Shown here: in pieces, positions 598 through 53,160 of the stretch
Layout: every line of letters starts with the position of its first letter
How positions within the stretch are numbered: position 1 is the first letter of the stretch
NCBI GenBank assembly: GCA_024614665.1
Contig: GCA_024614665.1_4861.1
Direction: 5' to 3' (one strand)
Length of the DNA stretch: 64,000 bases
Source of the DNA: a phage
Notes under the pieces: generated by a model
The model's database searches: none
What the model saw: only the letters and a program-made list of their open reading frames with translations
Told to the model about the DNA's origin: nothing
Made by a program: the position numbers and the translations under genes

Positions 598-645
598 TAT
601 AGTTCTCCTTGAGGTCTTTTACATACGTACAGCCGTGGCCGTAAA

Positions 646-2573: not shown

Positions 2574-3848
2574 TTACAAGGCGAAATAGCTCTGCACCAG
2601 CGTACTGGCAGACTGATATTGGACACTACCACCGGCGATAACGTACGGACGTTTCTCGGTGGTCAGGAGTGCTTGAATCGCATTACTGTTGGCGTACGTG
2701 TAAAGCTTAAGCTCAACCATTCCAGGATTCGTTTTAGAGATATCCCAGTTCGGATTAAGCGCTTTAAACAACGTCAACAGTCGTTGGCCGTAGGTGCTGT
2801 AACCCACACCCGGCTCAACGTTAAGGTTCATCAGAAGATTCTGAATAACAGTATCTGCAATCTCAGCACCTTGACCTGGCTGTAGTTTAGGCAAGTAATA
2901 CTCAACAGAATTGAGATTGCCCGAAGCCGCAGCCTGTATCATCAGTTCGCCGTACAACGCTTGTTGTGCAACAGGATCGGTGATAGCCTGAATCATCGGA
3001 TCGATGCGATTCGGCAGACCGTATTGATTGAGCTTCGTGGACATACCGTATATCAACGCAGACGAGGTGTTGATATCCAGCGAGGAGAAATTCCCACTCC
3101 CGCCCGTAAAGCTATCAATGATCCCGTCGATAGACAAGAAGTCGTCCAGGTCCTTAAAGCTATCGAACGTGTGTGTAACATCGTCAATCAGTGCAGTGAC
3201 TTGCCATTTGGCGCTATTGGCCATGTCGACGTAGTTACCGATTTCACGTTGCACCTCACCAGGCAGTTTGGCAAGCTGTCCCGCGATGTTCATCGTGGAC
3301 TCCAGGCGAGCTTTCACCGACGCATAATCTGTCCCGACCGCGCTTAAAGCGCTATCGCGAAGATCAGTCAGCGTATCCCATCCCTTACTTAACAGGCTAC
3401 CTGCGCCACCCGGTGAGAGATAGCTCAGTGCAGTTTTCCCTTCCTGGTTTACCTTCTGAAAGGGTTCGGACACATCGCGCTTCTGCGGATCGATAACCGG
3501 CAGCGCTTCTTTCGTGTTGGAAGCAAAAGTAGGCACACGTTGTGGCGGCGATACTCCGGAAGCCGCTGAACCTGCTGCCTTTTTACCGCCTACCGTGACT
3601 TGGTCACCACCACCGAACACGTTACCAAATTTCTCACTTATCGTGTTGCCAATGTTGGAGATCTTGTCGAACGTCTCTCCGGCTTTAGCAGTTGCGTTAT
3701 TGTACAAATTTTGAGCACTTTCAATACCGCGCTCGGCATTACCAATCGTTGACTGGACACGGTTTTGAACATCGTTAACTTTGTTCTCTATTGCGCCCGT
3801 TGTGCTGCTTATCTGGTTGGTAATCCCATCAAGGTTGTTCAGTTTCAT
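2574..3848 (-). CDS. hypothetical protein with Gly/Ser-rich N-terminal third (424 aa)
   Basis: Long ORF; low-complexity Gly-rich segment (GNVFGGGDQVTVGGKKAAGSAASG); function unknown. Confidence 0.5.
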   Translation of the reverse strand: MKLNNLDGITNQISSTTGAIENKVNDVQNRVQSTIGNAERGIESAQNLYNNATAKAGETFDKISNIGNTISEKFGNVFGGGDQVTVGGKKAAGSAASGVSPPQRVPTFASNTKEALPVIDPQKRDVSEPFQKVNQEGKTALSYLSPGGAGSLLSKGWDTLTDLRDSALSAVGTDYASVKARLESTMNIAGQLAKLPGEVQREIGNYVDMANSAKWQVTALIDDVTHTFDSFKDLDDFLSIDGIIDSFTGGSGNFSSLDINTSSALIYGMSTKLNQYGLPNRIDPMIQAITDPVAQQALYGELMIQAAASGNLNSVEYYLPKLQPGQGAEIADTVIQNLLMNLNVEPGVGYSTYGQRLLTLFKALNPNWDISKTNPGMVELKLYTYANSNAIQALLTTEKRPYVIAGGSVQYQSASTLVQSYFAL

Positions 3849-4707
3849 TGGAACTCCAGAATCTATACGTCGCTAACGGAACGTTGTCGCTGACCTCATA
3901 TTCTCTACCACTGCGATGGCGAACTTTGAAAGTGATTTCGAACTCACGTACGTCCAGCGCTTGTAAGATTATTAGAAACCAACGCCAGGTGATTGCCTCG
4001 GTGTGACGCATCGCCTGTTTCATGTTGTTTCGTCTGTCCCCACGTTTGGATGATGTGCCTGGGCACAACTTAGGGTTGTTGACGTAGTTCGTCGTCCACC
4101 GTTCCAGTTTATCGCCATCGATTTTATACCCACGAATAACTTTGTAGATTAGACGCAGGAGAATATGCTTCATCACATGTTCGATGGTGTGGTCGATGTT
4201 CGCAACATACTCGTTAACGTCGTGAGATGCAGGATGCTCGAAACGCTCTTTACGTTTCTTCCTGTTCTCATTACGTAAGTTCTTAATGAAGTCCTCACGC
4301 ACAAACGTACTGTCGAATACAAAACACTTCGTGTCAAAGCTTCCCCGCTTAGTCAGCAGGGTGACTGTTAGCGTTTGCATCTCCAGGATAACTAATCCCT
4401 CGATGAAACGTTTCCACGTAAAATCGACTGTCAGGTTACGTACTGAACCACCCGTAAGTGAGGTGTTCAGCCGGTTAACGCGGTCGGTCATCGTGGTCAG
4501 TTTGCTGTCGCGAAACTGTTTCAGATACTCCGGGTCGTTGACATGTTGACGGATAAGGTTTTTCCATATCCCGTCGCTAATACCCATCAACTTAACCAGA
4601 TTCCAATAAGCTTTCCTTAACGGGTAGCTGGAATCTGACGCCGGTGGCGTACCGTGCCAAATTTGCTCGCGTGTGCTATTCAGCGGCGGCTTTTTCTCAT
4701 CATCCAT
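3829..4707 (-). CDS. hypothetical basic (Lys/Arg-rich) protein (292 aa)
   Basis: Long ORF; KR-rich stretches (RNENRKKRKERF); no catalytic motif recognised. Confidence 0.45.
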   Translation of the reverse strand: MDDEKKPPLNSTREQIWHGTPPASDSSYPLRKAYWNLVKLMGISDGIWKNLIRQHVNDPEYLKQFRDSKLTTMTDRVNRLNTSLTGGSVRNLTVDFTWKRFIEGLVILEMQTLTVTLLTKRGSFDTKCFVFDSTFVREDFIKNLRNENRKKRKERFEHPASHDVNEYVANIDHTIEHVMKHILLRLIYKVIRGYKIDGDKLERWTTNYVNNPKLCPGTSSKRGDRRNNMKQAMRHTEAITWRWFLIILQALDVREFEITFKVRHRSGREYEVSDNVPLATYRFWSSNETEQP

Positions 4708-5818: not shown

Positions 5819-6494
5819 ACAGCGCAGTGTCCTTTACGTCAGTACCGACGTATTGGGCAAGAAAACGGGTGGACTCCTTAAAGGGGTTCACCTTATCTCT
5901 TTTTATTTGCGCGATTGCTTCTTCCGTTAATTCGCTGGTCAGCATACTCGGTCGGGTAATCGTAAAATCCGGAATCGGTTTCTGGAAATGGCTCGCGTGT
6001 TGTTCTATCCACGGATACCAATCGTACATTATCCAACCATCCCATGCAGAAGCAAGTCGTCCTGGTGTAAGATCGCTGTGAGGAATAACAACGACGTCTA
6101 CTTGCACTTCGTTGTAGTAGTAGCGCAGTTCTTCCAAAAACGCATGACGTTCTTCATCATCGAGATCGGCGTATGGCCACAGGTTAAACGTTAAGACAGG
6201 TCGCTCGATAGGAGCGTGCATCTGTATCGTCATTAACATTGCCTGTACTTCGTTCTTTAGCGTAAGCAACATTTCTGTTGGCTGCGCGTTCTGCAACGCG
6301 CGTTTATCACGCTCCGCGAACTTTTTATTCCAGTCCTGAATTCCTACCACTTCGGCCCACGCATCCGTGAACCGCATCCGATACACTTCTAAATCAAGCT
6401 TCTCTAATACATCAGGCTGCAACACTTTCGCCCAACCAATTCGTGTATCGAAGATTGTGTCGATATCGACTAAGAAACGGCGTCCTAATCTCAT
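5766..6494 (-). CDS. hypothetical protein (242 aa)
   Basis: Long ORF; ATGA-type overlap with upstream gene. Confidence 0.45.
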   Translation of the reverse strand: MRLGRRFLVDIDTIFDTRIGWAKVLQPDVLEKLDLEVYRMRFTDAWAEVVGIQDWNKKFAERDKRALQNAQPTEMLLTLKNEVQAMLMTIQMHAPIERPVLTFNLWPYADLDDEERHAFLEELRYYYNEVQVDVVVIPHSDLTPGRLASAWDGWIMYDWYPWIEQHASHFQKPIPDFTITRPSMLTSELTEEAIAQIKRDKVNPFKESTRFLAQYVGTDVKDTALFSLRRHQQDDDSQTQMP

Positions 6495-9283: not shown

Positions 9284-9381
9284 CAGGTGTTACCTTTTTG
9301 CAGTTCTCGTACATAAGGTTTGGGTGATACGTAAAAGACTTACTATGTAGCCCAATCCCTTATATATTCGAGGTTGATAGA

Positions 9382-16836: not shown

Positions 16837-16881
16837 TTCAACTCTCCACGAGATTATATATCACACTATTAACTATTAACG

Positions 16882-16918
16882 TAAAAAAGGAAATCCCTCT
16901 TACCCGAAGGTAAGAGGG
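16882..16918 (-). terminator. intrinsic terminator
   Basis: ccctcttacc-cgaa-ggtaagaggg stem followed on minus strand by T-run. Confidence 0.55.
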
Positions 16919-23640: not shown

Positions 23641-24063
23641 TTAGCTATTCCTTTTCGCCCAGGCATGTACCGCTGACTCGAAACCTTCGTGTTCGATACC
23701 GAGCCGTTTCATTGCCAACATAGTGTTGAGGCTATTCGTAATTTCTTCACGGTAGCGATGGTCATCCATCTTACGCCAACACTTCTCCGGGTCAACGCCT
23801 AAACGCTGGAGTAGATACGCCTCACGCACCATACCAGGCCGCCAGAATTTAGGGCGGGTAATCGCGATTTCAATCATGGGCGTCATGTCCAACGTGTGGG
23901 CGAGAATACTAACCGGCGTTTCCCCAACTTTATCACGTAGCGCTAAACGTAACCACCACTGAACATTTGCTTTGGTTTCAGGTAACAGGTCGTAGAATAA
24001 GGCTGTTTCTTCTTCTGATAAATGATCGTATAGTGATTTTGTTTCGCGAATAGCGGTAACCAT
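23641..24063 (-). CDS. hypothetical protein (140 aa)
   Basis: Intact ORF. Confidence 0.4.
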   Translation of the reverse strand: MVTAIRETKSLYDHLSEEETALFYDLLPETKANVQWWLRLALRDKVGETPVSILAHTLDMTPMIEIAITRPKFWRPGMVREAYLLQRLGVDPEKCWRKMDDHRYREEITNSLNTMLAMKRLGIEHEGFESAVHAWAKRNS

Positions 24064-24074
24064 TTTAATGCTCC

Positions 24075-24338
24075 TTAGGGTAAAGTTGCCTCCCAGTCGT
24101 AACGGTGAGGCTCAGGCAGCGTACCAAGCGCTGCTTTAATACACGTACTCAGCGGAGTATCATCGAACGCAACACGCCCGATAGTACCCACGTTGATGTG
24201 TTTTGGATTTACGGGTAAGAACTCCTTCACCCGCTCGTACTCAGCCCAACAGATATCGGTGTTTAAAGCTGAAAACCCAGGACGGTGAAACATAAATAGC
24301 ACTCCTCGCGTAAAAATACCCCACTCATAGTGAGGCAT
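24075..24338 (-). CDS. hypothetical protein (87 aa)
   Basis: Intact ORF. Confidence 0.35.
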   Translation of the reverse strand: MPHYEWGIFTRGVLFMFHRPGFSALNTDICWAEYERVKEFLPVNPKHINVGTIGRVAFDDTPLSTCIKAALGTLPEPHRYDWEATLP

Positions 24339-28488: not shown

Positions 28489-28541
28489 GTTTGCCTTCTA
28501 ATGAGAAAGTATTAGTCGTTCATATCCAAAAGGTCATGCGT

Positions 28542-28573
28542 AAAAAAGAAGAAATGGAACCCCGAAGGGTTCC
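28542..28573 (-). terminator. intrinsic terminator
   Basis: ggaaccc-cgaa-gggttcc followed on minus strand by T-run. Confidence 0.5.
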
Positions 28574-35796: not shown

Positions 35797-35976
35797 GGTA
35801 CTGCACTCCTCGTTAGGTTAAAAGTCAAGGTCAACTACAAAAAGGATGTCGGTATCCTACGGATACCTCCGTTTATGTTCGCATCCAATACATAAACCCC
35901 CTTACCCCCGTACTCTCCTCGATTGTCAAACGATGAGATCGAAACGTAAAAAAGTGTAGTATGAGAGGAGGGTGGT

Positions 35977-36909
35977 ATGAACAAATCTAAGTCAGGGTTG
36001 CACATCTTCTCGATAGGTATCGTCGCGGAAGATAAACCTCGTGGTGCCACTCGAGTTAAAGTCATCCCTATCGAAGTTAACTTTATTAATCCAACAGCTG
36101 TCGATGCAACAGAGACGCCTGTAGAGAAGCAACACAACAGTTTAAGTGGTACTGACAACCTTACTGTAAAGCAAGGTAATGCCATCACTGCAAAATGGAT
36201 GAAGTCCAATAGCAACCGGGTTAACCCTCCGGATGTGAAAAAAGAAGACTATGTAAGAATCTGGCGTATCGGTGAAACCGATATGTACTTCTGGGAAGAT
36301 TTAAACAACAGTAACGTTAAGCGACTGGAAGATGGGGTATATGCCTGGTCTGCTGACCCAGTAAACCAGATGGCCGATGACCTCTCTAACGCCTACGTAC
36401 TGAATATCTCCCCGATGGATGGTCACATTACCTTACGTACCAGTATGACCAACGGTGAGAAAAATGCGTATTTGCTCCAGCTGAATACCCGTGACGGACT
36501 TTGCCAGTTAGTGGATGACGAAGGGCGTAAGTTCTACCTCAATTCTCCGGAGGATGACTTAGGGTTTGAAAACGCCTGCCGGTCGAAGATTAATATCAAT
36601 AAAGAGGACGCTTTCATTTATGCTAAACGTTCTATTAATCTCGAGACAAAGACGATTAACGAGAAGTGCGAAACTCGCAACTCTACAGCGTCGAAAAACA
36701 TGGCATGGACGACTGAAGACTGGAAGACCACATGCCCAACGAATCTATTTACCGGTAACCTGGAAGTAGGTAAGGATTTCCTCTATAACGGCAAGGGTGA
36801 GGGTAAGGGCACATTCACAGTTACCGAATCGGTTATCGGCGGCATCACCTTTACTCTTCACGTACATACTGGCCATGGTCCGGGCAACGACACCAGTACA
36901 CCTCACTAA
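35977..36909 (+). CDS. hypothetical protein, possibly virion-associated (310 aa)
   Basis: GAGGAGGG RBS; first gene of plus-strand module; function unknown. Confidence 0.5.
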   Translation: MNKSKSGLHIFSIGIVAEDKPRGATRVKVIPIEVNFINPTAVDATETPVEKQHNSLSGTDNLTVKQGNAITAKWMKSNSNRVNPPDVKKEDYVRIWRIGETDMYFWEDLNNSNVKRLEDGVYAWSADPVNQMADDLSNAYVLNISPMDGHITLRTSMTNGEKNAYLLQLNTRDGLCQLVDDEGRKFYLNSPEDDLGFENACRSKININKEDAFIYAKRSINLETKTINEKCETRNSTASKNMAWTTEDWKTTCPTNLFTGNLEVGKDFLYNGKGEGKGTFTVTESVIGGITFTLHVHTGHGPGNDTSTPH

Positions 36910-36910
36910 G

Positions 36911-36934
36911 TTATTTACGTGTGTGGGGTATAAT
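36911..36934 (+). promoter_or_regulatory. candidate sigma70-like promoter (perfect TATAAT)
   Basis: TTATTTACGTGTGTGGGGTATAAT; -10 hexamer TATAAT at 36929-36934; about 180 nt upstream of DUF1471-like gene. Confidence 0.3.
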
Positions 36935-37116
36935 GTGACAATAAACCCCTAACTGTAACGATAACCCGAATCGCTTGTACACAGTTAGCCACTTTTTTCG
37001 CACAAAAGCCGGTTTATTGTCAACTAACTTACGAGTCGGGGCAGTTAATATGCCTCGTAGTACAAGTAGTTGAACATAGGGTTCTTCTGCTATCATTTGT
37101 TAATGGAGATAAGTAA

Positions 37117-37326
37117 ATGAGCATTCGTGAAATCACCGCAGGCAGCGACGTTTCTGGTCTGGTAGAAGCAGGCACCGTTCAGGTTTCTGGACTGAGCACC
37201 GTTACCGAAGTTACCGAAGCGCTGGCTAAAAAAGCCGAAGCTGAAGGCGGCGTAGCATTCAAAGTTACCGCTTGTGGCGGCAACAACAAAATGTTCGGCA
37301 ACGCGATCTATTACGTAAACGCGTAA
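37117..37326 (+). CDS. DUF1471 (YdgH/BhsA/McbA-like) domain protein without signal peptide (69 aa)
   Basis: LAKKAEAEGGVAFKVTACGGNNKMFGNAIYY closely resembles the BhsA-type C-terminal region as I recall it (LAQKADEMGAKSFRITSVTGPNTLHGTAVIY); in-frame stop directly upstream of ATG; GGAG RBS. Confidence 0.5.
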   Translation: MSIREITAGSDVSGLVEAGTVQVSGLSTVTEVTEALAKKAEAEGGVAFKVTACGGNNKMFGNAIYYVNA

Positions 37327-37339
37327 TCAGCCTGCAGGC

Positions 37340-37397
37340 AAAAAAAGATATAGGTACCCTACTCCCAACGGGAGTAGGGTTTACCTTTTATTTTTTT
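37340..37397. terminator. bidirectional intrinsic terminator
   Basis: A-run, stem ccctactcc/ggagtaggg, long T-run; between convergent genes. Confidence 0.6.
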
Positions 37398-38650
37398 CTT
37401 GCTTTGTAGCGATGCATTTCAACAAACGGCTTACCCCAAGCCCCGAAAGGCCCGACGATTGCCTGCGCGTCGTTTACCAAATTCTGGTTATACCAACGTG
37501 CGTTCCCCAACAAAAAGTTTTCCCGGTCGAAGAATGTGGTATTGAAAACCCACTCCCCTTCTTCCCAGGTCGGCCAGTACCCTACACATTTACCAATACG
37601 GTTAAAGATAGGACCTAGCGTTTTCTTCCCATCTGGGTCAGTTGGGTCTTTTAAATAGAACCGGCCCCAGATAGCGTTGTGGCTTATTCCGTGAATCTCT
37701 TTTTCGAGATACGGGTTGTCTATCGTAAAGATAAACGAGGATTCGTGCGTCAGCAACGCTTTTAACGTTTCTGAGTTACGAATACGTTGAACGGACGTAG
37801 GCGTACTTAAATCACCTACACCGATGGCGTCCCAATCGTAATAGCGACGGGTTTCCAATACAATCTTCGCCACGCTAAGGTTTGGCAGACTCAGCATAAT
37901 CGCACGGTCGCTGAAATAGCCCTGCGGTGGCAACCAATGCAGAATACCCCCGATGACGAACCCAACGGTTTTCCCTGTAATGGAATCGGGTAAGGTCAAC
38001 ATTAACGAAGAATAGTAATCTCGCGTAGTATCGAGTTTGTTCATCGTTAAACCGGATATGGGGTAGGTCTTTACTTTACCGATGTTTGCCATCACCAGAC
38101 AGCCGATGTCAGGTGTATTGGCACGCCGCACGATGTTACCAGCGCCAGTTAAGCGAACACCCACTGGGTCAGATTGGTGAGGTACCCATTGACCGTTGAT
38201 GTTGTACAGTACCCCGGTACGGTATTTCTCTTTCCACTCATCGTCGCAGACTACAACAACGTCATGTGCATCATCAGGATTGAAGTCCTGAGTGTAATGG
38301 TACCCAGGAGGGCATAGGTGCGTTTCTACGGGCACATCTGCATTAATAGACTGGTAGTGTGCCTCAACGAATTCGAGCTTCGGTAGGCCCTTCCCAAGCG
38401 TTGGAATCGCGATTCCTGACTTGGTGTTTAACCAATCTTGCAACGTGTCCGTACGGTTTTGTAAATCTGCCAGGTGATACTGGCTATAGAAGGTATATTC
38501 AGCACCTAGTGCTTCTAGTCCTACTTCGAAAAAGTGGTAGTTAGCACAAAGGGTATTTAAGGGCTGCGTGACATCGATGGTTCCCCAAGTTCGGGTGTCT
38601 CGAGAGAAGCCAAAAGCGCTGTCGGCCCGCACTTGATAAGCAGTAGTCAC
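37388..38650 (-). CDS. hypothetical protein (420 aa)
   Basis: Long minus-strand ORF between plus-strand structural genes. Confidence 0.5.
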   Translation of the reverse strand: MTTAYQVRADSAFGFSRDTRTWGTIDVTQPLNTLCANYHFFEVGLEALGAEYTFYSQYHLADLQNRTDTLQDWLNTKSGIAIPTLGKGLPKLEFVEAHYQSINADVPVETHLCPPGYHYTQDFNPDDAHDVVVVCDDEWKEKYRTGVLYNINGQWVPHQSDPVGVRLTGAGNIVRRANTPDIGCLVMANIGKVKTYPISGLTMNKLDTTRDYYSSLMLTLPDSITGKTVGFVIGGILHWLPPQGYFSDRAIMLSLPNLSVAKIVLETRRYYDWDAIGVGDLSTPTSVQRIRNSETLKALLTHESSFIFTIDNPYLEKEIHGISHNAIWGRFYLKDPTDPDGKKTLGPIFNRIGKCVGYWPTWEEGEWVFNTTFFDRENFLLGNARWYNQNLVNDAQAIVGPFGAWGKPFVEMHRYKARKK

Positions 38651-41700: not shown

Positions 41701-42422
41701 ACCGTATTTCTGTACTCGTCGCACGCACCGCAGGGCGTATTACCACTCCAGGCGGCGTGAGCACGTATGCGGGAATCGCGGTTAACTACGGACGTGCTGC
41801 ACAGGTTGTTATTGGCCTGAATGGTGTCACTGGTTCTGGCCGAGACTGGACGGCACTTAATCCATCGGTGCGTTTCAGCCACACGCGAACAGCGGACGGT
41901 ATTTCGTTCGAGGGAACGATTAACATCGATTCCAAAACGATTAACTTTGAGTTGACGCTAACCGCGACAACAAAGACGCTGAAATACACCTTGCAGTCGA
42001 CCGGCGAGTCGTGGACTGAAGATTTGTCTACCCGTCTCCGTCCTGACTATATTGACTTGACGAAACTGATTACCGATCCGAGTACGCCGATTTATCACGG
42101 CATGGGTGGTTTGTTTAGTTCCGACACAGAAGTGCGTTTGACCTACGCTAACCTGAACACGATGCCGACAAAGAATCGTTATTACGCCACGTTCCTTGAT
42201 TATGCGATTAACTATTCCGGCTTAAACCGCGCAAGATTCTTTACTGGCGTGGTGGAAGCAGGTTCAACGATTAATGAGATGAACAGCGAGATGTGCAACT
42301 ATTCATACAGTTCGTTCCGACCAGTGGATACAGGTAAAATTCCGCCGGCGGCACACCCATCCAAGATGATGACGTTCAATCCGCAAAACACGTCAGGTCG
42401 AACACTTATTATTCGTGATTAA
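38718..42422 (+). CDS. large tail fibre / receptor-binding-like structural protein 1 (1234 aa)
   Basis: Very large ORF with AAAGGAG RBS; N-terminal domain shared with next three proteins (APFY...LGDDYVI...GVWITNPK); fibre role is inferred from size and arrangement. Confidence 0.55.
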   Translation: MAVVPDPHYQEPGNMQTGEAVTPIGTKYRMLFPAHAPFYTTSLVVKSGGKKLTLGDDYVITHAYVTGMARTGHVCHGGVWITNPKYQSGFTLDYHAIGIGEATAEMIAAEREANKDRYPVDCQWDNVIGDLYFPPVDIKFDWENWRGESELMEAIAEIGQKIATLPPIPDPMANNTAKYVDNDLVEPNFTYDNAGGFVTNTNKADQYSTLGSRTYSLGDYKFQATYTLPSYYSTTTTPYWWFTLIGYWGSPFRKATLELVNGNTFRFLITYDSFDKKETFVWATLPVGIDFFKKPFTVTIDRKRAARTIELTITQDSKVVLHSLMDMNNPPAEFATRFTQLGIASTLDRNTDFRFRHISSIGDKVSFRALPGAVIEAPDGSDVLSILKKYHALVDQLYRGAPAHAHVPRKDNPHRDSWGAIRALENNGIASDATLVYGKTQPQLTDYVNNLLPKLSTLANKLLRLPAAAQSISGTFGMKPGLTSITSAVGTDESEGVGAQFTVDPRVIRFIGRDSQTVNAGNNPITWQGGANQLILYPDSRGLEFNGKKLLDPTTVGPYLPGNESGGDGLFYGTSTATVTINGNGIQSVPFICTFVPPESDDLGLMAVRLLATEFGDREDLAATPALIKKLDQQFTGKLVAVKSYINDMPLTSSIYIDKTNFGLSNVQNVPDVQLPISPLQQAELDKYAVVGHKHTSAAFGIKRATTTEFGLVQFGTAVDDATLALDGGVVIRQADAITEIEKVAKTVDSGAAIDIIRYGLPGTDIIENGITYTDWMVTIKANDYFVGREYKVPLSTFNLAELFPATHEDAEFGVYVDVAGNDAKYIIYENPNTAETETMTKIGSIITSETGVVFVEIRNVTRLGEFRELGEHIEDDNAHIRRGMTQAEFGFTYGTGGPVWSTGAPGTKRIDADWRYAQANSYTPMLEADYDPAADKWTFKTTSLSVADYRFVHNTFPMFQNNGITATWTPLTATADSVLETVIGCCHHSATFMHRISVLVARTAGRITTPGGVSTYAGIAVNYGRAAQVVIGLNGVTGSGRDWTALNPSVRFSHTRTADGISFEGTINIDSKTINFELTLTATTKTLKYTLQSTGESWTEDLSTRLRPDYIDLTKLITDPSTPIYHGMGGLFSSDTEVRLTYANLNTMPTKNRYYATFLDYAINYSGLNRARFFTGVVEAGSTINEMNSEMCNYSYSSFRPVDTGKIPPAAHPSKMMTFNPQNTSGRTLIIRD

Positions 42423-53106: not shown

Positions 53107-53113
53107 CTTGTTT

Positions 53114-53160
53114 ACGAGCCGGACTATGTTTATGGACATAGTCCGCTCGTTCTACTTTTT
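53114..53160 (+). terminator. intrinsic terminator separating fibre module from Cys-peptide cassette
   Basis: cggactatgt/acatagtccg stem, then TCTACTTTTT. Confidence 0.5.

Follow-up and report, generated by a model that had tools for sequence, protein, structure and literature searches.

The protein encoded by gene 172 (gp172) of an SPN3US-type phage corresponds to a periplasmic DUF1471 (YhcN/BhsA/McbA-family) domain of enterobacteria in its mature form, with the Sec signal peptide removed, and in at least five related jumbo-phage genera, such signal-less forms are fixed at one locus, where the central-spike gene lies on one side and a baseplate gene on the other. The explanation that we favor overall, with confidence somewhat better than even, is that gp172 is an accessory virion protein of the tail module that is transcribed by the phage RNA polymerase. 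The analyzed stretch of DNA (hereinafter, the window; 64,000 nucleotides) comes from an SPN3US-type (Seoulvirus) jumbo phage, with 98.5-98.9% nucleotide identity to SPN3US and SaP7. As an object, gp172 is already on record: the SPN3US protein has a RefSeq entry (YP_009153466.1, 'DUF1471 domain-containing protein') and has been reported once by mass spectrometry. What is new is the presence of the signal-less copy at the same syntenic site across these genera, along with strong purifying selection and the occupation of this site by a PAAR gene in phiKZ.

A DUF1471 protein without a signal peptide

The open reading frame at 37117-37326 on the plus strand is gene 172 of the SPN3US-type giant Salmonella phage (Table 1). 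As noted in the initial annotation of this DNA, the 69-codon frame directly follows an in-frame stop codon (TAA, 37114-37116); the Shine-Dalgarno sequence GGAG is located at 37105-37108, with the ATG 8 nt further on. The same start and the same protein are found in approximately 23 Seoulvirus genomes, and signal-less orthologues are present in 4 further genera, so a sequencing error that hides an upstream start with a signal peptide, an objection that the annotation itself had raised, is excluded.

Table 1. Features of the gene 172 locus and its surroundings (positions in the window)
Feature	Position	Strand	Remarks
gp173, central tail spike gene	35977..36909	+	upstream neighbour of gp172, outside the gp172 unit
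P1, phage-type promoter-like motif TTACG-N14-TGTG	36915..36937	+	begins 6 nt past the gp173 stop codon
Structured RNA domain	36937..37021	+	85 nt, from the predicted P1 +1; predicted fold
P2, second promoter-like motif TTACG-N15-TATG	37029..37052	+	predicted +1 = G37052, 65-nt 5' UTR
Short 5' UTR with Shine-Dalgarno sequence	37052..37116	+	from the predicted P2 +1; no significant structure, z = -0.21
gp172 coding sequence	37117..37326	+	69 aa, ATG start, signal-less DUF1471 protein
Intrinsic terminator hairpin	37356..37380		common to convergent gp172 (+) and gp171 (-); A-run before, T-run after
gp171, baseplate/tail gene	37388..38650	-	convergent downstream neighbour of gp172; context only

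The assignment of the product to DUF1471, originally made from the sequence by eye, was borne out by profile search: the Pfam family PF07338 (YdgH_BhsA-like/DUF1471) matches residues 16-66 of gp172 with E = 3.3e-11 and 43.5 bits, against a gathering cut-off of 27 bits, and the match covers profile positions 2-54 of 55; the orthologues score 51-68 bits. By contrast, gp172 falls far short of the NCBIfam equivalog cut-offs for McbA (40.9 vs 110), BhsA (39.4 vs 90), YbiJ (29.6 vs 110) and YhcN (22.6 vs 125) and so is not an orthologue of any named DUF1471 paralogue; in PHROGs, it is assigned to family 8068, function unknown. The AlphaFold2 model of gp172 (pLDDT 85.4) shows the strand-strand-helix-strand-strand order, and the top Foldseek matches of this model are 2jna, 4evu, 2ma8, 2m2j, 2noc and 2ma4 (TM 0.67-0.76); with the first four, which are solved Salmonella DUF1471 structures, the agreement is TM 0.69-0.79. 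Thus, gp172 shares both the Pfam domain and the alpha+beta fold with the enterobacterial DUF1471/YhcN proteins (BhsA/YcfR, McbA/YbiM, YahO, SrfN, YbiJ, YdgH), as well as the core residues G19, G25, L36, A40, G44, G55, N57, G61, A63 and Y66, and the host range of the phages fits the restriction of the family to Enterobacterales. The structure of RcsF (2y1b) is also among the Foldseek matches; a relationship between the DUF1471 fold and RcsF has been described (PMC4092069).

The DUF1471 proteins of the host lose about the first 21 residues by cleavage and reside in the periplasm (PMC4092069), whereas gp172, judged by the length of the N-terminus and Kyte-Doolittle hydropathy in comparison with bacterial homologues, has no signal peptide, in agreement with what had been proposed initially. 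In gp172, the stretch ahead of the first conserved glycine is just 18 residues long and non-hydrophobic (top 10-residue mean hydropathy of 0.77), compared to 26-43 residues with values of 1.6-3.1 and typical MKK...AxA leaders in 52 bacterial homologues. The leader is missing in all 10 sequences of the phage clade and present in 52 of the 53 bacterial sequences compared, and the gp172 N-terminus, MSIREITA, aligns to the mature N-termini of bacterial proteins, e.g., ...FAAQEITA.

Signal-less orthologues of gp172 are encoded by Seoulvirus, Machinavirus (Caitlin, Machina, ChrisDB), Erskinevirus (Asesino), Derbicusvirus (CR5) and Wellingtonvirus, and by 9 metagenomic contigs; the divergent ones escaped tblastn (E <= 1e-3) and were located via synteny. 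The literature searched contained no mention of the orthologues from Asesino and Wellington. All these phages share a common layout that consists of the spike gene (+), a gap of 160-400 nt, a DUF1471 frame of 68-73 codons (+) and a convergent homologue of gp171, and all 11 IMG/VR loci sit on genomes of 224-248 kb. The phage proteins form a monophyletic DUF1471 clade that is syntenic across the genera and is about 30-45% identical to the bacterial members. In a word-index search, gp172 retrieved only phage-type relatives of 66-70 aa, and in an exhaustive profile search, bacterial matches, again at 30-45% identity, began at E = 1e-10 and weaker; the GC content of gp172 is in line with that of the neighbouring genes. 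We therefore reject a recent capture from the host, so that the original suggestion of a host domain captured by the phage stands only as an old event. Within Seoulvirus, gp172 differs by 3 synonymous and 0 non-synonymous codons (compared to 31-40 synonymous and 8-11 non-synonymous changes in gp173), a codon pattern that shows strong purifying selection.

The genes that flank gene 172 belong to the tail. Residues 6-223 of gp173, a member of PHROG 3216 ('baseplate assembly protein'), match phiKZ gp164 (PDB 6orj, E = 3e-27), and for residues 243-304, the match is the apex domain in gp45, the puncturing device of phage Mu (3vto, 9ki1). On the opposite side, gp171 is homologous to phiKZ gp130 in PDB 9xqd (E = 1e-10), and the convergent genes are separated by a terminator with an 11-bp stem, 7 G-C pairs and a T-rich tail. 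Published mass spectrometry shows that gp173 is missing from tailless particles, and SPN3US gp171 is essential and tail-associated (PMC5105663).

In phiKZ, the position equivalent to that of gp172 is occupied by gp163.1, which matches PAAR (E = 1.7e-6) and, like gp172, is the product of a small same-strand frame directly after the central-spike gene; the T4 gene for gp5.4 is likewise a small gene that follows the spike gene. We considered gp172 as a PAAR-like spike-tip protein and rejected this possibility: unlike gp163.1, it has no PAAR motif (PF05488), the Pfam search gives DUF1471 alone, and the SPN3US spike itself carries the Mu gp45-like apex domain. Nor does a link between apex-bearing spikes and the small gene hold, given that the spike of phage RAY has the apex region and no such gene follows it; in Ea35-70, which is RAY-like, the gene is missing as well. 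Thus, the likeness of gp172 to gp163.1 and gp5.4 is positional only.

Promoter-like motifs upstream of gene 172

In the initial annotation, a perfect TATAAT about 180 nt upstream of the gene was taken as a strong -10 box. The hexamer is indeed there, at 36929-36934, 183 nt 5' of the ATG, and is preceded by TTATTTACG (36911-36919), as described; as a promoter element, however, it does not hold up. There is no -35 hexamer at a distance of 16-18 nt, where the sequence reads CTAAGT, TAAGTT or ACTAAG, and no extended -10 TGn (GGG directly precedes the hexamer), and a sigma-70 scan reported no site at this position. TATAAT occurs in the window 21 times compared to 28.3 +/- 5.6 expected, i.e., no more often than by chance. 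Moreover, the hexamer is not conserved, being replaced by TATATT in SPFM4, Lh1B, MET_P1 and Proteus phage 7, by GATAAT in pEa_SNUABM_29, and by TATATG or CTGTAT in the Caitlin-like phages. Transcription in the phages of the phiKZ type is carried out by RNA polymerases of the phages themselves, and infection by phiKZ is resistant to rifampicin (PMC4666361); SPN3US virions carry RNA polymerase subunits according to published mass spectrometry. A scenario in which transcription from a host sigma-70 promoter yields a long leader with a regulatory role and a cytoplasmic protein of the DUF1471 family, although compatible with the perfect hexamer and with the missing signal peptide, is therefore extremely improbable. 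Gene 172 has no sigma-70 promoter; rather, TATAAT is part of the spacer in a phage motif of which further copies are found in front of other genes.

This motif, TTACG-N14-TRTG, is found in the window 10 times compared to 1.16 +/- 1.03 expected (none of 100 shuffles contained as many). Six of the 10 copies fall within the non-coding part, which makes up about 5% of the window: five of these are located 25-38 nt before gene starts, and the sixth is P1. The predicted start of P1 is G36937, just 3 nt past TATAAT, so the hexamer is too close to function as its -10 box. P1 ends in TGTG, as does another intergenic copy in the window, 26 nt ahead of a gene, and both its position and its sequence are kept in the relatives as TTAC[A/G]-N14-T[A/G]TGAC. 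For the N15 spacing of P2 taken alone, there was no enrichment in the window; most of the relatives have T[TA]AC-N15/16-TATG 41-65 nt 5' of the ATG, and outside the SPN3US species, this P2-like motif comes straight after the T-run of a terminator.

In phiKZ, middle and late promoters consist of AAanTTACc at about -24 and TATG, with the G as +1, they are used by the non-virion RNA polymerase of the phage, and single changes in TATG strongly lower transcription in vitro (PMC4666361); P1 here has TGTG. The likeness to these promoters includes the location of TTAC about 19-20 nt before T[A/G]TG, the T-rich stretch ahead of TTAC, and the recurrence 25-38 nt 5' of genes. The differences are that the window consensus is TTACG with the fixed N14 spacer, that P1 has TGTG and P2 has N15, and that the starts are predicted only. 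On sequence grounds, then, TTACG-N14-TRTG appears to be a motif of the phage-RNA-polymerase type that resembles the phiKZ middle/late promoters and provides a first candidate promoter consensus for SPN3US-like phages.

Predicted structure of the leader RNA

The inverted repeats reported in the initial annotation are present (CTAACTGT, 36949-36956, and ACAGTTAG, 36981-36988) and form a predicted inner hairpin nested in a larger, perfect 11-bp inverted repeat that had escaped mention (GACAATAAACC, 36937-36947, and GGTTTATTGTC, 37011-37021) and is the predicted closing stem of the domain; a U-rich block, CCACUUUUUUCGCACAAAAG, occupies 36990-37009. The 85-nt domain folds with a minimum free energy of -22.8 kcal/mol (z = -4.68), and none of 200 shuffles folds as well. 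Pairing is kept through sequence changes in pEa_SNUABM_29 (GACAAC/GUUGUC) and Asesino (GCAACAU/AUGUUGC and UAAUGC/GCGUUG), and in other Seoulviruses, an A-to-G change yields a G.U pair, on the plus strand only. This two-stem covariation is read by eye from few sequences because variation at the species level is small and, for distant relatives, MAFFT/RNAalifold on the short form misplaces the closing stem's 3' strand. Most genera examined share the block GCCACTTTTTTCGC, CR5 being an exception, whereas the flanking sequence has diverged.

In the relatives (Machinavirus, Erskinevirus, Wellingtonvirus), a canonical intrinsic terminator follows the predicted start by 125-180 nt, with compensatory changes in 6 of its 9 pairs; among the internal hairpins of this long form, 8 of the 44 pairs covary, and the folding z-scores of the leaders across the relatives range from -1.6 to -6.3. 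The SPN3US species falls short of the relatives by the terminator and about 60-80 nt (in L021, the gap is only 161 nt): a scan of 36937-37029 detected no intrinsic terminator, and the window leader is without the central hairpin of the long form. A search of 36910-37116 against Rfam 15 yielded no match, the best hits elsewhere being far under the threshold. A coding role for the leader was considered and rejected, given that the frames of 32 codons (+) and 61 codons (-) do not extend beyond the SPN3US species, being interrupted or missing elsewhere. The suggestion that the leader is a regulatory RNA is thus partially supported, by folding far superior to that of shuffled sequences and by the covarying hairpins of the relatives.

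We propose that the multisubunit RNA polymerase of the phage reads gene 172 from the two tandem promoter-like motifs, as suggested by the recurrence of the motif and the phiKZ precedent. Transcription from P1 (+1 at about 36937) would yield a 180-nt leader, the first 85 nt of which would adopt a closed structure, whereas P2 (+1 at about 37052) would provide a leader of 65 nt that lacks structure and has a good site for ribosome binding. In most of the related genera, the P1 RNA would stop at the covarying terminator just ahead of P2 and hence would be a separate RNA of 125-180 nt. Because the SPN3US species has lost this terminator, the structure in the window is most simply interpreted as a 5'-terminal domain of the longer mRNA and the 3' end of the spike message, and it probably affects the stability of the mRNA or the ratio of the two transcripts.

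Two other interpretations of the leader have to be weighed against this proposal. Under one of these, the P1-P2 interval is a small-RNA gene unrelated to gp172, of which the window contains a shortened copy that has lost its terminator. We entertain this possibility tentatively, and it is compatible with our preferred account. The terminators and covarying hairpins of the relatives speak in its favor, and so does the parallel with the small RNAs of 201phi2-1 and phiKZ identified by ONT-cappable-seq, which likewise combine a promoter, a terminator within 250 nt, a location in the tail-gene region and a conserved fold; 201phi2-1 has 11 such RNAs, and one of these is conserved upstream of a tail gene (PMC11512511). 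However, the leader RNA is predicted only, the window copy has neither the terminator nor the central hairpin and belongs to no Rfam family, and the published conserved small RNA precedes a different tail gene, of the phiKZ gp182 family (PMC11512511). The conserved P1 RNA might even be a small RNA of jumbo phages that has not been described before and is linked to the tail module, although this appears unlikely to us; the structured RNA and terminator before gene 172 are a small-RNA candidate in a phage group that serves as a genetic model. Under the other interpretation, the structure is a functionless, decayed remnant of the terminator region of the spike gene, and only P2 matters. The loss of the terminator with the adjacent 60-80 nt and the even shorter gap in L021 would be as expected, but the remaining 85 nt fold significantly, begin exactly at the predicted +1 and are closed by 11 perfect pairs, and a sequence block is kept across most of the genera, so we consider this interpretation unlikely.

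Possible virion association and roles of gp172

In wild-type SPN3US virions, gp172 was represented by 4 unique peptides and 6 spectra, with 81% coverage, in a single CsCl-purified preparation, and was reported as the smallest (7 kDa) virion protein, of low abundance; the authors concluded that its virion status needs further work (PMC5694885). No entry for it exists for any of the four preparations from the 2016 study or the three mutant ones from 2017, and the authors ascribe these absences to the loss of the gel's low-molecular-weight portion (PMC5694885). Normalized by mass, the spectral counts in these data are 0.86 per kDa for gp172, 0.23 for gp173 and 0.74 for gp171 (data of PMC5694885).

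In the account that we favor, gp172 would be made in the cytoplasm alongside the tail and baseplate proteins, as suggested by one published mass-spectrometry data set, and would enter the virion in few copies, with the baseplate or the spike as the most likely site. Built into the virion in this way, gp172 would need no export signal. If gp172 acts in the envelope, which is the usual place of action of the domain but for gp172 is a conjecture, the tail tip of the infecting phage would carry it there.

Alternatively, gp172 might not be a genuine virion component and would act in the infected cytoplasm, e.g., as an assembly factor for the spike or baseplate or as a host-directed factor, with its detection resulting from carry-over. 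This is possible although we tend to doubt it. On the one hand, the protein was seen in one preparation, by 6 spectra, and is missing from seven others, and low-level non-structural proteins were found in some preparations (PMC5694885). On the other hand, the coverage and the number of unique peptides were obtained with CsCl-purified phage, the mass-normalized count of gp172 exceeds that of the spike, which itself is missing from tailless particles, and the absences have the explanation offered by the authors. A further point for a cytoplasmic factor is that assembly factors are often encoded within tail modules. Another possibility, which appears quite unlikely to us, is that gp172 is a virion-delivered envelope effector: it would be derived from a periplasmic domain of the host, share its RcsF-like fold and bypass Sec altogether. 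Such an effector would be loaded on the baseplate or spike in the cytoplasm of one cell, freed into the periplasm of the next cell when the outer membrane is punctured, and act in the first seconds of infection, conceivably by mimicking or competing with the host DUF1471 proteins, e.g., in envelope-stress signalling or outer-membrane permeability.

The DUF1471 proteins rank with the most abundant envelope proteins that stress induces in Enterobacterales and yet, to our knowledge, no protein of this family has a known molecular function or biochemical activity. A phage lineage has long kept a signal-less DUF1471 protein alongside its cell-puncturing device and, it seems, within the particle, and since the partner of gp172 would sit either in the baseplate or, during entry, at the cell envelope, the phage protein could offer an independent route to the binding target of DUF1471. 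Should gp172 turn out to have only a minor structural or assembly role, there would be nothing out of the ordinary in the finding.

Unlike the host DUF1471 genes, gene 172 is located in a phage tail module, and its product was detected in virions. The arrangement of the unit, with a terminator, a promoter, the gene and another terminator between conserved tail genes, resembles that of phage morons, i.e., accessory genes with their own promoter and terminator inserted between conserved genes. In contrast to morons, the putative promoter here is of the phage type, not the host type, the gene has long been fixed in several genera, and the product is probably structural; gene 172 has little in common with a lysogenic-conversion gene of recent acquisition. 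As with morons, the slot is variable: in Wellington, it contains two extra frames, one of which (gp189), with an acidic tail that gave no functional hint when examined, encodes a second DUF1471 paralogue.

A distinct phage subfamily of DUF1471 proteins

Every element described at gp172 and in its leader by the initial annotation is present; of the interpretation, the part concerning the protein proved partly right, the suggestion of a leader RNA is supported, and the promoter was wrong. Gp172 (SPN3US_0172; RefSeq YP_009153466.1, 'DUF1471 domain-containing protein') itself has an annotation and one earlier report; no description appears to exist, in the literature searched, of the clade of signal-less proteins at its fixed place next to the spike gene, of the candidate promoter consensus for Seoulvirus or of the cassette of structured RNA and terminator. 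In a nucleotide search, the 1.4 kb around gp172 is 98.5-98.9% identical to the Salmonella phages SPN3US and SaP7 and also matches about 30 further Seoulvirus genomes of roughly 240 kb each, all phiKZ-related jumbo phages.

An HMM search placed gp172 above the Pfam threshold for DUF1471 (43.5 bits against 27, E = 3.3e-11). Its AlphaFold2 model (63 homologues as input, pLDDT 85.4) is closest in the PDB to Salmonella DUF1471 proteins solved by NMR or crystallography, namely STM0082, YdgH domains, SrfN and YahO (TM 0.67-0.76), followed by RcsF, a relationship of the family that has already been described (PMC4092069). As claimed, the signal peptide is missing: an in-frame TAA lies directly 5' of the ATG, with GGAG 8 nt upstream of the latter, and the first conserved glycine comes after only 18 residues, most of them polar, compared with 26-43 residues, forming a classic basic and hydrophobic leader, in 52 bacterial homologues (highest 10-residue hydropathy mean 0.77 versus 1.6-3.1). 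The N-terminus MSIREITA... aligns with mature bacterial N-termini (...FA/AQEITA...), and therefore gp172 corresponds closely to the processed form. A sequencing error does not account for the missing signal, the protein being 100% identical in about 23 genomes.

A word-indexed search with gp172 returned only phage-type relatives of 66-70 aa, and an exhaustive profile search of 1.8 billion representatives yielded a few further short forms and then ordinary bacterial proteins of 83-88 aa, with the match starting near residue 28-35, from E = 1e-10 downwards. When orthologues were traced by synteny from the spike gene, a common order emerged, namely, the spike gene (+), a gap of 160-400 nt, a DUF1471 ORF (+) of 68-73 aa and a convergent gp171 homologue. 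This arrangement is found in the Erwinia phages pEa_SNUABM_29 (Seoulvirus), Caitlin, Machina and ChrisDB (Machinavirus), Asesino (Erskinevirus), Wellington (Wellingtonvirus; ORF annotated 'putative multiple stress resistance protein BhsA'), Cronobacter phage CR5 (Derbicusvirus) and nine metagenomic contigs, and a signal peptide is absent from all DUF1471 ORFs at these loci. All 11 loci in IMG/VR lie on genomes of 224-248 kb. Gp172 (PHROG 8068) is conserved, syntenic and under purifying selection, with 3 synonymous and no non-synonymous codon differences within Seoulvirus (31-40 and 8-11, respectively, in neighbouring gp173); its GC content is unremarkable, and it scores under each of the NCBIfam equivalog cut-offs for BhsA, McbA, YbiJ and YhcN. 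By the synteny, the signal-less clade, the distant bacterial matches and the GC content, the proposed capture of a host domain was therefore a single event and an old one, and, judged by these comparisons, gp172 is a distinct phage subfamily rather than a recently borrowed BhsA.

Several of the SPFM phage records (LR535901, LR535903-LR535908, LR535911-LR535913, LR535917) match the gp172 region only as 14-19 short pieces, and the same assemblies give truncated 61-aa 'proteins' (protein handles P0009-P0011), which suggests that they are error-rich. In JN03 (MT799840), gene 172 is unannotated, and the match of SEGD1 (KU726251) to gp172 ends at residue 63.

Neighbouring genes, virions and possible role

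The N-terminal two-thirds of gp173 match phiKZ gp164 (PDB 6orj) and the C-terminal 60 residues, which include HVHTGH, match gp45, the puncturing device of phage Mu, in its apex domain; gp173 is therefore the central spike with a tip of its own. Gp171, which matches phiKZ gp130 (PDB 9xqd) and is essential and tail-associated in SPN3US (PMC5105663), shares with gp172 an intrinsic terminator 3' of the latter. The small gene right after the phiKZ spike gene, gp163.1, has a PAAR motif, so that in phiKZ the gp172 slot is filled by a spike-tip protein; the likeness is one of position only, and no PAAR motif was found in gp172. The phiKZ spike matched gp173 over the body, not the apex, with the PAAR gene coming next, and RAY-like phages have no small gene after the spike, though their spike aligns over the apex region; the Mu-type apex and the PAAR gene look like two different solutions, in a single phage family, for giving the spike a sharp point. 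The content of the slot varies: in Wellington it also holds an ORF of 52 aa and a second DUF1471 paralogue, likewise signal-less, whose long acidic tail is probably disordered.

Ali et al. 2017 (PMC5694885) found gp172 in CsCl-purified SPN3US (4 unique peptides, 6 spectra and 81% coverage in the supplementary table) and described it, at 7 kDa, as the smallest protein of the virion, with low abundance and unknown function; the mass-normalised counts are 0.86 for gp172, 0.23 for the gp173 spike and 0.74 for gp171. Virion proteomics, which the initial annotation named as a check, thus offers one published detection, but gp172 is missing from 47(am1) particles, where the authors suggest a possible gel-range artefact, and has no row in the other mutant tables of that paper, nor is it listed for any of the four preparations in the 2016 SPN3US paper, so the detection is positive but fragile. 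The main rival reading, in which gp172 has its role solely in the cytoplasm of the infected cell and was carried over into the mass-spectrometry sample, strikes us as rather unlikely. On the reading that we prefer, gp172 would be transcribed by the phage RNA polymerase along with the tail genes, incorporated at the baseplate or spike and brought on the tail tip to the envelope of the next host, and such arrival would explain why an otherwise always periplasmic domain manages without a Sec signal. The DUF1471 family gives no guide to its action, since none of the members has a defined biochemical activity; the one lead is the binding of sulfated polysaccharides by SrfN (PMC4092069).

Promoter-like motifs

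The initial annotation took TATAAT, preceded by TTATTTACG, for a strong -10 box. Both are present, but TATAAT occurs 21 times in the window against 28 expected, so that a lone copy is no evidence for a promoter; the copy here lacks both a -35 and a TGn partner, a sigma-70 scan reports no site there, and orthologous leaders read TATATT, GATAAT or TATATG in its place. A sigma-70 promoter was rejected. What orthologous leaders keep is TTAC[G/A]-N14-T[A/G]TGAC, immediately 3' of the spike stop codon; TTATTTACG thus represents the upstream element that is conserved, with TATAAT falling in the spacer.

On both strands of the window, TTACG-N14-T[A/G]TG has 10 copies, compared with 1.16 +/- 1.03 in shuffles (0 of 100 reach 10), most of them directly preceded by T-rich sequence. 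Only about 5% of the window is non-coding; P1, the copy following the spike gene, was placed by a crude gene map inside a spurious antisense ORF and is counted as non-coding. The motif resembles the phiKZ pattern, in which middle promoters carry AAanTTACc centred near -24 and late promoters carry TATG with G at +1, promoters of this type being served by a rifampicin-resistant RNA polymerase that belongs to the phage itself (PMC4666361), and we propose it as a candidate promoter consensus for SPN3US-like phages. P1 has TGTG where phiKZ has TATG, and single TATG substitutions cripple transcription in vitro from the phiKZ promoter P119L (PMC4666361). The spacer of P2, the second such motif, is off by one; relatives have T[TA]AC-N15/16-TATG 41-65 nt before the ATG.

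One copy precedes gp186, a non-virion essential gene, so structural genes are not the only ones with the motif. A TTACG-N14-TTTG variant with an upstream T-run sits between the divergent gp174 and gp173; on the gp173 side, TATG lies 14 nt before the ATG and is not accompanied by TTAC, so that a different promoter, of late type, may serve the spike gene.

Features of the gp172 region, promoter-like motif copies and compared loci
Feature	Position	Strand	Remark
gp174-gp173 gap	35797-35976		
TTACG-N14-TTTG variant	35905-35927	-	131 nt before gp174
gp173	35977-36909	+	upstream gene, central spike
TTATTTACG	36911-36919		
TATAAT	36929-36934		
Closing stem, 11 bp	36937-36947 / 37011-37021	+	opens at first predicted transcribed base
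Inner hairpin, CTAACTGT/ACAGTTAG	36949-36956 / 36981-36988	+	inverted repeat
GCCACT[T/A]TTTTCGC	36990-37003		
P2, TTACG-N15-TATG	37029-37052	+	65 nt before gp172 ATG
gp172	37117-37326	+	69-aa DUF1471 ORF
gp171	37388-38650	-	downstream gene, convergent to gp172
gp170	38718 (start)	+	next after gp171
TTACG-N14-T[A/G]TG	622-644	-	intergenic, 25-38 nt before gene start
TTACG-N14-T[A/G]TG	5943-5965	-	
TTACG-N14-T[A/G]TG	9312-9334	-	intergenic, 25-38 nt before gene start
TTACG-N14-T[A/G]TG	16862-16884	-	intergenic, 25-38 nt before gene start
TTACG-N14-T[A/G]TG	23719-23741	-	
TTACG-N14-T[A/G]TG	24291-24313	-	
TTACG-N14-T[A/G]TG	28521-28543	-	intergenic, 25-38 nt before gene start
TTACG-N14-T[A/G]TG (P1)	36915-36937	+	sixth non-coding copy
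TTACG-N14-T[A/G]TG	42182-42204	+	
TTACG-N14-T[A/G]TG	53112-53134	+	intergenic, 25-38 nt before gene start
Wellington (L026) ORF	3436-3594		52 aa
Wellington (L026) ORF	3822-4043		gp172 orthologue, annotated BhsA
Wellington (L026) ORF	4108-4668		186-aa second signal-less DUF1471 paralogue
Phage fnug (L029), phiKZ-type	3338-3604		compared with the gp173 locus

Leader RNA

The inverted repeats noted in the leader (aactgt...acagtt) form the inner hairpin of a larger fold. Starting at G36937, the predicted +1 of P1, and stopping just short of P2, the RNA has a folding energy of -22.8 kcal/mol (z = -4.68; 0 of 200 shuffles fold as well), with the U-rich block CCACUUUUUUCGCACAAAAG largely open, and the P2 leader is unstructured (z = -0.21). 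The P1-P2 interval holds no ORF conserved beyond the species and matches no Rfam family. Stem changes in relatives support the fold, which appears partly to covary: the closing stem is GACAAC/GUUGUC in pEa_SNUABM_29 and GCAACAU/AUGUUGC in Asesino, where the inner stem is UAAUGC/GCGUUG, and in several Seoulviruses an A-to-G change retains a G.U pair on the + strand only; z-scores across lineages are -1.6 to -6.3. The proposal that the leader may be a regulatory RNA element thus gains support, with more structure than had been noted.

Phages beyond the SPN3US species have a longer interval, and in nearly all of these relatives it ends in a canonical terminator, a GC-rich hairpin with a T-run, just before P2, with compensatory changes in 6 of 9 pairs; in the Machinavirus-type long form, these affect 8 of the 44 predicted pairs. 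Given P1 and the terminator, a discrete RNA of 125-180 nt would result in most genera, the same kind of unit as those reported as sRNAs in 201phi2-1, one of them a conserved sRNA that precedes a different tail gene (PMC11512511). In the window phage, the terminator and the central hairpin have been lost between P1 and P2, and therefore the 85-nt structure is best read both as a domain at the 5' end of a leader produced by read-through and as the 3' terminus of the spike message, with a likely effect on mRNA stability.

Over the 40 nt that lead up to the second promoter motif in the relatives' loci L004, L005, L010-L020, L022-L024 and L026, the terminator T-run continues straight into the TTAC element (hairpin-TTTTTCTTTTTACAG), and terminator and promoter appear to form one compact cassette; cttttTTACG also occurs at several promoter-like sites in the window. 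The GCCACT[T/A]TTTTCGC block is nearly unchanged in the leaders of most genera examined, CR5 excepted, while the leader sequence around it diverges. Part of the block lies in an A/U hairpin, which reads CUUUUUU/AAAAAAG in Asesino and Wellington.
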